IMG/VR virus record: IMGVR_UViG_3300024333_000007
Span: 4,430-68,429 of that record
Source: a virus
DNA: 64,000 nucleotides
Strand: one strand, 5' to 3'
Under the pieces are notes generated by a model. The model was not told the DNA's origin. It did not search any database and saw nothing but the letters and a program-made list of their open reading frames with translations. This document shows, piece by piece, positions 38,528 through 41,029 of the stretch (position 1 is its first letter; each line of letters opens with the position of its first letter). Both the position numbers and the translations under genes were made by a program.

Positions 38528-39160
38528 CTATTTATTTAAACTTCTCAAAAAAGACTTCTCAATCCGAATGAATTGTTTTTCTATCTCGTCATTTGAACGC
38601 TCATCAAAAAAATAATCATAATCATCGTCGTCTTCCGATTTCCCAAAATCATGGTCTTCGGGGGTGTTTTCATATCTCCTAATCTTGATCTTAGATTTTG
38701 CATCCTCTATAAACTGTGTCGTGTCAACATGAGGATATACAATTTCAATGTCCAAATCTACATGGGTATATGCACCACATGAAAGTTTAACGCGTTTTAC
38801 TGCTTTTCGTCCGCCATGCCAAACCAATATAGAAATCTCATGGTTTTTGTTTAGCGTTTCTTTGTCATTAATGGAAAAATCATGAATACCAAGACCATGA
38901 TGAGAATGAACTACACCATAAGTCTTGATATTGGCATCTGGAAATATATTATGTACACTGCAGGAGCTAACTTCTTGTTCAACAAGAAGAATATCGGATA
39001 TAAAATTGCAATCTCCTATTAAAAACGCATACCACTCCAGATTTTTATATTCATTTAATAAGGCATTGAGTTTGGCGTCCACTCTAAAGTCAAGATAGAG
39101 AATCTCTTTTTTTGCCAGCCCACAAACACACACATATTTTTGTTTATCATTTTCCCACAT
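38528..39160 (-). CDS. JAB/JAMM metalloprotease (Ubl-processing or deconjugating)
   Basis: Catalytic E in LEWYAFL; GVVHSHH..8..FSINDKE = HxH-S-x2-D motif. Confidence 0.85.
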   Translation of the reverse strand: MWENDKQKYVCVCGLAKKEILYLDFRVDAKLNALLNEYKNLEWYAFLIGDCNFISDILLVEQEVSSCSVHNIFPDANIKTYGVVHSHHGLGIHDFSINDKETLNKNHEISILVWHGGRKAVKRVKLSCGAYTHVDLDIEIVYPHVDTTQFIEDAKSKIKIRRYENTPEDHDFGKSEDDDDYDYFFDERSNDEIEKQFIRIEKSFLRSLNK

Positions 39161-39162
39161 AA

Positions 39163-39759
39163 TTAGACCATCCTATACATATATTCTAAATCACACGAAA
39201 TTTCTTTGTTGTGATATTTTAAGGCCGCACCAACAGTCATGGCCGCAATAACCACTGCTGGCACAACCCAGCTAGGAGTTATTCTATAACCACCATCGGT
39301 TTCGCCCCAACTTGCTACCCTATATGATAGAGTAACATGCGTCCCATCATAACCCGGACTCATATATTTAATATTCTTTTCTTTGCACCACTTTTCAATT
39401 TGCTTTTGTGATTCGATTTTATCAGTACAATCGAAAACCACATCTGGCTTATTAATAACCACATCACCATTAAACCTAAATGGTATGGCATTAACATTTA
39501 CATCTGTCCGTAGATTTTCCAATATCTTTTTCACCAAATGTGCTTTATTTTTGCCTATCATAGAAATTGGTAAATCAAGCCGATTAAGGTTGCTGGCCTC
39601 AATCGTGTCATGGTCAAACAATGTTATTTCCCTTACACCGGACATCGCCAAAAATTTAGATACCCAATATCCAACACCACCACAGCCAACTACAACTACA
39701 CACATATCGGTTTTTAGTCCGATATTCTTTTGCCTGTCATAAATTATCATGTGTGCCAT
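39163..39759 (-). CDS. E1-like ThiF/MoeB adenylyltransferase
   Basis: YDRQ, VVGCGGVG, DHDTIEASNLNR, GKNKA, DCTD. Confidence 0.92.
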   Translation of the reverse strand: MAHMIIYDRQKNIGLKTDMCVVVVGCGGVGYWVSKFLAMSGVREITLFDHDTIEASNLNRLDLPISMIGKNKAHLVKKILENLRTDVNVNAIPFRFNGDVVINKPDVVFDCTDKIESQKQIEKWCKEKNIKYMSPGYDGTHVTLSYRVASWGETDGGYRITPSWVVPAVVIAAMTVGAALKYHNKEISCDLEYMYRMV

Positions 39760-40646
39760 CCTCCCAGTGTTTGGTTTAATAAGGCACTTTCCGCTATTTC
39801 GCGGCTATTTTGATTTTGGTTGCGTTGTGCACTTGTAGTTGGCGCGGTGTATGATAATACTTTTCTTTTTAGGCTGCTAAATCTAGGTAATCCCCGGGGT
39901 GATGTGTTGCCCAGAGAACGCTCGTTTATAGTTCCAAGCACTCTAGACGCCGTCAGTGCTACATTTAACACATCCTCCGGGGTGTTAATAATGACATCCT
40001 GATAATGAAAAGTACCCCAACAGTCATACATACCAGTTTTATGATAATGATTAAAAGAATCCAATGTAAGTGTTTTTGTTGTGATGCTCAAAACACTTGA
40101 TTCCCTTGTTTCTATACTAATTATTATTGGTGTGGATATTTTTTTCCTTATTGTGGTAGGAATTTCTTTTCTTATAGAACTAGATCTGCACAATAATGTA
40201 TCGGGGCTATATATTGTTATATACAACCAAACAATGTTGCCGTCGCGGCCCTTATAAATTGATAGGCCCCTTTTCGCCATCGAAAAATCTATATCCGGCA
40301 TAAGAGCACAACTATTATATTTTTTGTTAAGCTCTTTGGTCATTTCGTCGTAGTTCTTAATAGTCTGAATAGCAAATTCTTTGAACATTGCTATTTCATC
40401 ATATATCATCCTTTTCTCAGACTCTATCTTTTCATCATAAATTTTTTCATATTCCTCTCTTATTTGGTCTTCCAAAGATGGGGACCCAGAAACAGCCACC
40501 AACTTAAAACATTTACCACCTACTTTAAGTATAAAGTTATCTGTTTCAAAATCAATGTTTTTTCCAGATTTCCGGGTATTAACATTACTCCTGGCTATTT
40601 CTGCCATGCGAACAATTTGGTCAATACTTTCATCCGATAAACCCAT
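39747..40646 (-). CDS. Putative prokaryotic E2-like (UBC-fold) conjugating enzyme with N-terminal coiled coil
   Basis: FNHYHKTGMYDCWG (HxH-x6-CxG) followed by a helix and LGTINERS; lies between Ubl and E1. Confidence 0.6.
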   Translation of the reverse strand: MGLSDESIDQIVRMAEIARSNVNTRKSGKNIDFETDNFILKVGGKCFKLVAVSGSPSLEDQIREEYEKIYDEKIESEKRMIYDEIAMFKEFAIQTIKNYDEMTKELNKKYNSCALMPDIDFSMAKRGLSIYKGRDGNIVWLYITIYSPDTLLCRSSSIRKEIPTTIRKKISTPIIISIETRESSVLSITTKTLTLDSFNHYHKTGMYDCWGTFHYQDVIINTPEDVLNVALTASRVLGTINERSLGNTSPRGLPRFSSLKRKVLSYTAPTTSAQRNQNQNSREIAESALLNQTLGGWHT

Positions 40647-40676
40647 TAATTTTGTCCTTTCGTTGGTTGAAATATG

Positions 40677-40713
40677 TGGGCATGTCTGGCCGATTGTTGG
40701 TCAGACATGCCCA
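40677..40713. other. Strong 17-bp hairpin between the Ubl and E2 genes
   Basis: tgggcatgtctggccga-ttg-ttggtcagacatgccca. Confidence 0.8.
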
Positions 40714-40723
40714 ATTGAGTAGT

Positions 40724-40975
40724 TTACGAAGACGCGGGTGTATCATAAGCGAATATACGAATTTTCATATTTTCGCGTATGGTTTCCGGCGCGTCTTCCT
40801 GATCGACGATCTCGTTGCTACCCAAAAAGACCCTAAACTTGCTATAGCCGGCCTGGTTGGCCAGCCCAATAGCCGTTTCAATAAAACCATCCCCCACTGT
40901 TAGTGGAATAGTGGCACCATTAACAACAGCAACGGGCCCGCCATCACCAACCACGTCCGCATCATCAAACCACAT
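40724..40975 (-). CDS. Putative ubiquitin-like (beta-grasp) protein
   Basis: 83 aa, beta-beta-alpha-beta-beta-beta pattern (VAVVNG / IETAIGLANQAG / FRVFL / EIV / MKIRIFAYD) with short tail TPASS; GGGAG RBS; first gene of the E2-E1-JAB cassette. Confidence 0.65.
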   Translation of the reverse strand: MWFDDADVVGDGGPVAVVNGATIPLTVGDGFIETAIGLANQAGYSKFRVFLGSNEIVDQEDAPETIRENMKIRIFAYDTPASS

Positions 40976-41001
40976 AATTTCTCCCTTTTCGGTTTTTCCT
41001 T

Positions 41002-41029
41002 AGTATATCATGCCAAGATTAAAAGTCAA
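41002..41029 (-). promoter_or_regulatory. Sigma70-type promoter of the Ubl cassette
   Basis: GTTTG-TTGACT-16 nt-TATACT with extended -10 TG. Confidence 0.65.

Follow-up and report, generated by a model that had tools for sequence, protein, structure and literature searches.

A diverged gene cassette of a large tailed phage predicted to encode a ubiquitin-like conjugation module

The subject of this study is a stretch of 64,000 nucleotides, the window, that covers most of a 68.4 kb viral record of the IMG/VR database (IMGVR_UViG_3300024333_000007, positions 4,430 to 68,429), which by estimate is about 29% complete. Within this window, we have investigated a cassette of four consecutive genes encoding a small ubiquitin-like protein (Ubl), a protein with predicted resemblance to the ubiquitin-conjugating (UBC) E2 enzymes, a minimal activating enzyme (E1) and a metallopeptidase of the JAMM/JAB family. 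A preliminary description made from the sequence alone had interpreted this combination as machinery of the virus for the tagging of proteins with a Ubl, an interpretation that is supported by our analysis. The purposes suggested at the same time, either a modification of host or immunity proteins or a pre-emption of Ubl defences of the host, are speculative. The locus contains the following elements:

40724..40975, minus strand: gene of the Ubl, an 83-residue beta-grasp modifier as judged from an AlphaFold2 (AF2) model and structure matches.
39747..40646, minus strand: gene of the E2-like protein of 299 residues, with a UBC-like model and the invariant or nearly invariant motifs H200-Y-H202 and C209-W-G.
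39163..39759, minus strand: gene of the minimal E1 of 198 residues, a single ThiF-type adenylation domain (Pfam ThiF, 1e-31).
38528..39160, minus strand: gene of the JAMM/JAB metallopeptidase of 210 residues, with E42, H85-S-H87, S96 and D99.
41002..41029, minus strand: sigma-70-like promoter site TTGACT-16 nt-TATACT with TG before the -10 box, matching the consensus in 10/12 positions.
40677..40713, minus strand: perfect stem-loop of 12 base pairs or more between the Ubl and E2 genes, detected by folding in comparison to shuffled sequences.

The four co-directional open reading frames (ORFs) are located on the minus strand at exactly the positions that had been claimed. A 77-nt spacer separates the Ubl from the E2 gene, 13 nt are shared between the E2 and E1 genes and a gap of 2 nt is found between the E1 and JAB genes. 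The promoter site lies within the 67-nt gap between the stop codon of the upstream gene and the 83-residue ORF, where it is followed by the Shine-Dalgarno-like sequence AAGGGAG. The promoter described earlier is present upstream of the cassette and appears plausible from its position, although this match to a consensus is not statistically distinctive, since similar sites are common in the scanned region (27 in 4.2 kb compared to 18.3 +/- 4.5 in shuffled sequences). Just after the stop codon of the Ubl gene, the DNA of the window forms a predicted hairpin of -24.7 kcal/mol (z -6.0), whose stability was reached in 0 of 200 shuffles. Strong hairpins of differing sequence occupy the equivalent place in all eight loci that were folded (the window and the related loci L005, L023, L024, L042, L047, L064 and L078), in several cases with a U-run on their 3' side. 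Beyond the hairpin, a TTGACA box is found in L047, L078 and L023, with TATTAT located 17 nt further in L047. The hairpin looks like a terminator or attenuator that separates the Ubl from the enzyme genes and, in combination with the promoter-like TTGACA box, it would lead to the production of more Ubl than enzymes. The Ubl gene is also distinguished by its composition, with a G+C content of 49% compared to 31.6% in the whole window and 34-38% in the three partner genes, which may reflect either its amino-acid composition (Gly, Ala, Val and Pro) or a separate ancestry. An ORF on the plus strand (40652-40903) that overlaps the Ubl gene was rejected as antisense artefact, as all 429 homologs match the minus-strand product.

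On its own, the 83-residue protein has no match in Pfam, PHROG and PADLOC and no significant sequence match in the PDB. By aligning the neighbouring genes of related loci and using them as query, we have identified 429 homologs on contigs of up to about 240 kb, none of which contains a Pfam domain. An AF2 model based on 66 sequences (predicted local distance difference test, pLDDT, of 83.3) shows the topology beta-beta-alpha-beta-beta-3(10)-beta. Foldseek relates this model to ubiquitin and its variants, SUMO, ISG15, TtuB and a Ubl from Bacteroides (probability 0.80-1.00, best E 7.6e-3), and in an exhaustive structure search with the tool VIA all 50 matches listed have a beta-grasp fold (best Z 7.0), among them ThiS, MoaD and the Ubl 8tyz_B of the bacterial Bil system. 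At the level of sequence, the profile of the family weakly matches SUMO from end to end (E 0.41). The beta-grasp-like character that had initially been assigned by eye is thus borne out by the model and its ubiquitin-type structure matches.

The C-terminus of the family resembles that of a modifier. Among the best 120 of the 429 homologs, its conserved position is occupied by Gly in 116 and by Ala in 4 proteins. The C-termini contain a single Gly preceded by Ala, Val or Pro (EAG, KVG, VAG, KPG). About 90 of the 120 proteins end exactly at this position and 30 carry 1-9 further residues, and the presence of a tail on some homologs and its absence on others is the pattern expected of a modifier that is matured by a peptidase. 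The Ubl of the window contains Ala81 at the position of the conserved Gly, followed by a Ser-Ser tail, and the Ubl of the related locus L024 ends in Ala without a tail. An assembly error as cause of the unusual C-terminus is excluded by the fact that the DNA between 38100 and 41800 is found without a single difference in contigs from metagenome runs of lake water dated 2018, 2019 and 2025, which may include the source of the window itself.

The E2-like protein belongs to a family without annotation. An exhaustive HMMER search has revealed 110 homologs, 81 of them at 1e-10 or better, and all those that were looked up are metagenomic proteins devoid of annotation. A word-indexed protein search returned only the query itself, and the protein, alone or as profile, has no sequence match in Pfam, PHROG, PADLOC or the PDB. 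A Prok-E2_D feature score of 0.86 in the ESM Atlas is considered as lead only. The residues that are invariant across 68 homologs are P117, Y201, H202, C209, W210, G211, S244 and P250, with F198, H200 and N241 coming close to invariance and a spacing between the HYH and DCWG motifs that varies by 0 to 8 residues. The proposed E2-like motif, in which a His-x-His precedes Cys-Trp-Gly and a later Asn and Ser, is therefore a genuine property of the family.

The evidence for an E2 enzyme comes from structure prediction. An AF2 model (pLDDT 84.5, with 192 residues at 90 or more) contains an N-terminal hairpin, a 55-residue helix (58-112) and a compact alpha/beta domain comprising residues ~110-265. 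When the whole model was used in a wide VIA search, every match covering residues 107-265 was a UBC E2, including UbcH10, UbcH5b/c, Pex4, UbcH7 and 1yrv (Z 5.6-6.0), and the remaining matches, which dominate the list, are coiled coils that align to the N-terminal helix. In a second search of the PDB, all 50 matches listed are UBC E2 enzymes, where 116-125 residues, nearly the whole UBC core, were aligned at a root mean square deviation (rmsd) of 4.0-4.8 A and moderate Z-scores of 5.4-6.4, in a range (Z under 8) that according to the tool can reflect a common arrangement. Foldseek of the whole model against the PDB gave no match with E <= 0.001, its weak hits including E2s, Cap2, UFC1 and a UEV, and no match at this threshold was obtained in the viral fold library BFVD. 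An ESM Atlas structure search for the E2 domain returned nothing usable, the model of the Atlas itself being poor (pLDDT 0.54). Despite the moderate scores, the uniformity of the match list and the coverage of the full domain argue for a real UBC fold, which residues ~110-265 probably adopt, in accordance with the earlier proposal for the region around the His-x-His and Cys motif. BilB, an E2 of bacterial origin, can be compared to this result, as it superposes on human E2s with 3.4 A over 93-96 residues (PMC10557695). In the model, the sheet ends with a strand formed by residues 184-191, and the loop that connects it to the following long helix (223-236) contains C209, at a distance of 7-9 residues from the preceding H200-Y-H202. 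The corresponding loop of canonical E2s harbours the HPN motif and the catalytic Cys, and judged by this shared topology, C209 would be the equivalent of the catalytic Cys.

The E1 is the sole protein of the cassette that can be recognized by its sequence alone. Its match to Pfam ThiF (1e-31) and the invariance of its adenylation residues leave the earlier assignment as a clear ThiF/E1 intact. The family profile matches Uba1, ThiF, TcdA and MccB in the PDB at ~1e-19, Cap2 at 2e-11 and BubCD at 3.3e-10, in addition to MoeB, and the best PADLOC matches are to the 'E1-E2' models of Cap2 (2.8e-17), where they cover the E1 part only. Invariant across 15 sequences are R9, Q10, GxGGxG, D49, D51, N57, N59, R60, K72 and D110-C-T-D113, a set that accounts for the nucleotide-binding GxGxxG, the Arg/Lys contacts to phosphate and the Asp of the DxxD-type Mg site of ThiF domains. 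The only conserved Cys in this set, C111, is contained within the DCTD motif, whose cysteine is not known to be catalytic in ThiF and MoeB. Further invariant residues (Y158, P162, S163 and W164) are found downstream of the aligned core. As PDB alignments stop at ~131-148, the location of Y158 and S163 in the segment of the crossover loop is a prediction.

The assignment of the fourth protein as a clear JAMM protease holds at the level of its family, but the protein of the window alone has no match in Pfam. An alignment of 12 members conserves E42, H85-S-H87, S96 and D99, and ten of the 12 match Pfam Prok-JAB (best 1.1e-8). The family profile matches AMSH-like proteases, Rpn11 and CSN5 (best E 4.7e-4) with the E...HxH...S..D residues aligned. 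The window protein, which is 38% identical to its homolog in L024, contains one extra residue between HxH and S. Several relatives carry long N-terminal extensions and two a helix-turn-helix domain.

To define the distribution of the cassette, we have searched viral and prokaryotic sequence collections. Neither the region nor the E2-like protein found any match in blastn and tblastn searches of 50,697 deposited phage records, where the E1 retrieved only unrelated ThiF genes of <=30.5% identity. Related loci were instead identified in IMG/VR with a DNA pattern back-translated from HYH..DCWG, which matched 99 stretches. A profile search of 101 loci, which include the locus of the window itself (L001) and one found with the E1 as query (L002), detected E2-like ORFs in 26 of them, L001 among these, with 3 being weak and 7 short fragments. 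The order Ubl, E2-like protein and E1 recurs in 17 other viral loci, thus answering positively whether the arrangement is found elsewhere, and the JAB gene follows directly in 15 of the 17. The remaining two (L030 and L072) contain additional, inserted genes, and their fetched flanks are too short to reach a possible JAB gene. As some of the 17 are duplicates, they represent about 13 distinct cassettes. The loci split into two divergent groups with different flanks. In the group of the window, a gene encoding a sliding clamp is located directly upstream (12 loci), and a distant group (L014, L036, L046 and L052) has a different N-terminus of the E2 and no clamp in the fetched flank. When a slightly lengthened pattern was compared to one genome each of 185,579 prokaryote species, it matched 21 stretches containing three true family members, a lower bound as the pattern requires exact codon matches. 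All three are on contigs of metagenome-assembled genomes (MAGs) of 2.6-27.9 kb, one of which is identical to an IMG/VR virus.

Certain loci deserve a separate description. Two inserted ORFs of L030 (2764-3384 and 318-1052, plus strand) begin like GIY-YIG homing endonucleases and L072 contains an insert at 2388-3083 (plus strand); the cassette thus appears to tolerate the insertion of selfish elements. In L062, the E2-like gene is split into two ORFs (1419-1859 and 2013-2324, plus strand) but is whole in the near-identical L023 and L074, and the split may be explained by a frameshift, an error of sequencing or the decay of this copy. Finally, L002, a viral contig of higher G+C content that is unrelated to the window, encodes a look-alike set of four genes (2826-5194, plus strand). 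These specify a 69-residue protein with weak matches to SAMP2, ThiS and TGS, a 367-residue protein carrying an H-W-G-C...C-F-G-N-W stretch, a JAB (Prok-JAB 0.0021) and an E1. No link between the 367-residue protein and the E2-like family could be established, with no BLASTP match and an hhalign probability of 1.7%. As a lead only, L002 may contain a second, independent phage Ubl cassette.

Collectively, our results define a fold or family for each of the four proteins, conserved residues of catalytic type, the C-terminal Gly or Ala of the Ubl, a conserved gene order and the viral setting, and we consider it likely, with good but not full confidence, that the four genes encode a Ubl conjugation module of the phage in a highly diverged form. 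In the mechanism that we infer from this assignment, where all of the chemistry, the sequence of transfers and the presence of a protein to be tagged are predictions, the JAMM would trim the Ser-Ser tail of the Ubl and expose Ala81, whose equivalent in most relatives is a Gly that is already terminal. The E1, probably acting as a homodimer like other minimal E1s, would use ATP to adenylate the exposed C-terminus. As the E1 contains no conserved catalytic cysteine, the textbook relay via an E1~Ubl thioester cannot operate as such, and we thus propose that the acyl group would reach Cys209 of the E2 either directly from the adenylate or via an oxyester on the invariant Tyr158 or Ser163. A precedent for the latter is provided by the Bub E1, which uses an invariant tyrosine of its crossover loop to form a Ubl~Tyr oxyester (PMC11601596). 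The E2~Ubl thioester would resolve onto a lysine of the target. Since no E3 is present, the N-terminal hairpin and long helix of the E2 may select this target, and the JAMM may also reverse the mark.

Several observations weigh against this assignment. At the level of sequence, the E2-like family has no tie to any E2 family, including Prok-E2_A to E: none of 97 homologs scanned (68 + 29) contains an E2 Pfam domain, and profiles of PF00179 (UQ_con) and PF14460 have zero matches in the record. Its best structural matches are moderate, with Z <= 6.4 and an rmsd of 4.0-4.8 A. The E1 is devoid of the conserved crossover-loop Cys of canonical E1s, and the Ubl of the window displays Ala in place of Gly. 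The cassette also contains no E3 and no named target, and with a record that is only ~29% complete, partner genes could be located elsewhere in the genome.

The surroundings of the cassette define its host as a phage. Scans with Pfam and PHROG have identified genes for a primase, a ribonucleotide reductase, a clamp loader, a UvsX-like recombinase, an SbcCD-like nuclease, a large terminase and tail-fibre-like proteins. Based on this combination of replication, recombination, terminase and tail-fibre-like genes, the window is a fragment of a large tailed phage. It further codes for several DNA methyltransferases, a Ro60/TROVE protein and sugar-nucleotide enzymes, and contains a weak radical-SAM-like match. 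The closest neighbours are:

41043..41765, minus strand: sliding clamp of 240 residues, directly upstream of the Ubl gene; a neighbour whose membership in the system is not shown.
41992-43205: clamp-loader genes (Pfam scan).
38176..38514, minus strand: protein of 112 residues, 13 nt downstream of the JAB gene (PHROG phrog_4889 at 1.7e-10).

The clamp has no match in Pfam or PHROG and was identified by ESM Atlas structure matches to clusters of PCNA, beta-clamp and gp45 at template modeling (TM) scores of 0.73-0.81. The gene of the 112-residue protein is possibly co-transcribed with the JAB gene, but does not belong to the conserved parts of the cassette, as related loci contain no homolog within the flanks that were fetched. 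Further away, a Ro60/TROVE protein of 550 residues with a vWA domain is encoded at 36153-37805 on the minus strand (Pfam TROVE 2e-24; phrog_850 2.3e-40). No Y-RNA-like Rfam family scores above threshold anywhere in the window, where the only Rfam matches above threshold are two tRNAs (Ser-TGA at 30885-30974 and Met-CAT at 62180-62255). At least four DNA methyltransferase genes, accompanied by genes for a nucleotide-sugar epimerase and glycosyltransferases (21765-22610, 35288-36037 and 55271-57504), suggest extensive modification of DNA or surfaces by the phage.

As the clamp gene immediately precedes the Ubl gene in 12 of the 17 related loci, the sliding clamp is the prime suspect in a more specific version of the conjugation hypothesis, in which the E2 would tag the replisome of the phage itself with a Ubl received via Tyr158 or straight from the adenylate. 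We regard this version as a long shot, and the adjacency, which does not extend to the fetched flanks of the second group, may reflect only the shared ancestry of these phages. If true, it would constitute a viral, prokaryotic counterpart of the ubiquitination and SUMOylation of PCNA.

A function other than protein conjugation would be expected if the Ubl served as sulfur carrier, an explanation to which we assign a low probability. In this case, the Ubl would be adenylated and form a C-terminal thiocarboxylate as found in ThiS, MoaD, TtuB, CysO and QbsE, the JAMM would act in maturation only, equivalent to Mec+ and QbsD, and the phage would use the 299-residue Cys protein to pass on or take up sulfur in the synthesis of a modified nucleotide or cofactor. 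Trios consisting of an E1, a beta-grasp protein and a JAMM peptidase do occur in sulfur-carrier operons (Iyer 2006, PMC1779556). A sulfur carrier is also compatible with the presence of ThiS, TtuB and MoaD among the structure matches of the Ubl and with the minimal ThiF-like organization of the E1, which matches ThiF and MoeB among the profiles in the PDB. Moreover, the methyltransferases, sugar-nucleotide enzymes and the weak radical-SAM-like match suggest a modification of nucleic acids. Conversely, the 299-residue protein is predicted to fold like a UBC E2, unlike ThiG, MoaE, TtuA or CysM, and no rhodanese is fused to the E1, which consists of a single domain of 198 residues. The C-terminal Gly-Gly of sulfur carriers is at odds with the single Gly found in the Ubl family. 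Finally, the preliminary description had noted the absence of sulfur-transfer partners, and in agreement with this statement PHROG and Pfam scans of the window have named no sulfur-acceptor enzyme.

It also appears improbable that the cassette is a captured bacterial defence system of the Bil type, which the phage would use for superinfection exclusion by tagging virion proteins of its rivals. Such a role would be in line with the fact that all characterised bacterial sets of Ubl, E1, E2 and JAB are anti-phage systems or proposed to be so (PMC11601603, PMC11601596, Hor 2023 preprint), and the elevated G+C content of the Ubl gene (49% compared to 31.6% in the window) could be accounted for by acquisition from a different source. 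However, the three proteins other than the E1 match no PADLOC model, the E2 does not contain the Cys-then-His arrangement found in Bil and the E1 has no equivalent of the second domain, the CYS domain and the zinc cysteines of its Bil counterpart. Family members are moreover scarce in the pattern scan of 185,579 species genomes, with three true cases that are all on MAG contigs, and the fixed place beside the sliding-clamp gene in 12 of the 17 loci is reminiscent of a core gene rather than a moron.

Least probable among the explanations is a function in counter-defence, where the JAMM, which is present with its motif intact and whose bacterial counterparts act as negative regulators of CBASS and Bil through the cleavage of conjugates (PMC11601596), would strip Ubl marks of host Bil systems or CD-NTase conjugates of CBASS, with Ubl, E1 and E2 acting as decoys or competitors, since a lone peptidase would suffice for this purpose, yet four genes and their catalytic-type residues are co-conserved across two divergent groups, and a PADLOC scan found no similarity to host Bil or Cap3 components.

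With a conjugation module as preferred assignment, the closest parallel in overall organization is found in Bil systems (BilABCD, type I/II; operon 6d of Iyer 2006), which equally consist of four separate genes for Ubl, E2, E1 and JAB. The reactive C-terminal Gly of the Bil Ubl is sometimes masked by a short tail, as is the conserved Gly in the family of the phage Ubl, with a JAB that pre-processes the Ubl in Bil, and in both cases the E2 contains a catalytic-type Cys. The structural relationship extends to the Bil Ubl 8tyz_B, which is found among the matches of the phage Ubl with a Z of 5.1. The enzymes are distinct. BilD is a two-domain E1 consisting of an inactive and an active adenylation domain, which also contains a mobile CYS domain (Cys417) and a zinc site formed by four cysteines (PMC10557695), whereas the phage E1 is one domain of 198 residues whose only conserved Cys is part of DCTD. 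BilB contains a CEHH motif with His following the Cys (PMC10557695), in contrast to the phage E2, where H-Y-H precedes the Cys, the invariant residues after C209 are W210, G211, S244 and P250, and an additional helical region is found at the N-terminus. While Bil is bacterial and targets phage tails, the cassette described here is carried by a phage and finds no PADLOC match to Bil.

A minimal E1 without a conserved catalytic Cys is in turn shared with Bub systems (6E/DUF6527), whose E1 is a homodimeric ThiF-like protein without a Cys in the crossover loop, where it contains an invariant Tyr (PMC11601596). The phage E1 is similarly devoid of a conserved catalytic Cys and contains the invariant Tyr158, and its profile matches BubCD at 3.3e-10, although Uba1 and ThiF are no more distant from it than BubCD. 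The Bub E2 employs Ser and His, unlike the phage E2 with its invariant Cys, and Bub proteins are fused as BubAB, BubCD or BubBD and accompanied by the DUF6527 serine protease BubE, whereas the phage genes are separate and DUF6527 has no match in the record, which is ~29% complete. The combination of E1 and E2 chemistry with a JAB peptidase is also shared with Cap2/Cap3 of type II CBASS, and Cap2 appears among the weak Foldseek matches of the E2-like model. In Cap2, E2 and E1 are fused, and the substrate of conjugation is the CD-NTase itself without involvement of a free Ubl, in contrast to the dedicated Ubl and the separate E1 and E2 of the phage, and no gene in the window was named as CD-NTase in Pfam and PHROG scans.

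With respect to its E2, the cassette recalls eukaryotic enzymes of the UBC family such as UbcH5, UbcH8, UBE2A, UBE2S and Ubc9, which are the best structural matches of residues ~110-265. The His-containing triplet located 7-9 residues before the Cys is reminiscent of HPN, and by this placement the layout of the phage E2 is nearer to that of canonical E2s than to that of the Bil E2. The conserved Asn/Ser/Pro loop that follows the next helix in the phage protein resembles the loop located beside the active site of E2s. The phage E2 differs by the absence of detectable sequence similarity, the variable spacing between HYH and Cys and an N-terminal extension of 110 residues.

Among viruses, the TAPI (Ubl) and TAPK (JAB) proteins of Lambda and T1 are the only phage Ubl-JAB pairing named in the literature examined (Iyer 2006, PMC1779556). 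They are part of a tail-assembly cluster without E1 and E2, whereas the present cassette includes both enzymes and is located in a replication module. E1-like genes are described for Asgard archaeal viruses in the same body of literature, to which Hor 2023, Chambers 2023, Ye 2024, Gong 2024 and Rambo 2021 also belong. A phage-encoded set of Ubl, E2, E1 and JAB is not described in the full-text literature searched, a scope that does not extend to subscription journals and supplementary tables.

As a predicted Ubl conjugation system, the cassette is thus a phage-borne variant that is distinct from Bil, Bub and CBASS. Its very small, cysteine-less E1 of 198 residues and an E2 family without sequence relatives would be useful for studying the chemistry of a minimal E1-E2 relay and its evolution. 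Bacterial Ubl conjugation has so far been tied to the defence against phages in Bil, CBASS and probably Bub, a picture that is reversed by a cascade carried by a phage. If true, bacterial viruses would, like their eukaryotic counterparts, bring along or exploit machinery for the tagging of proteins.

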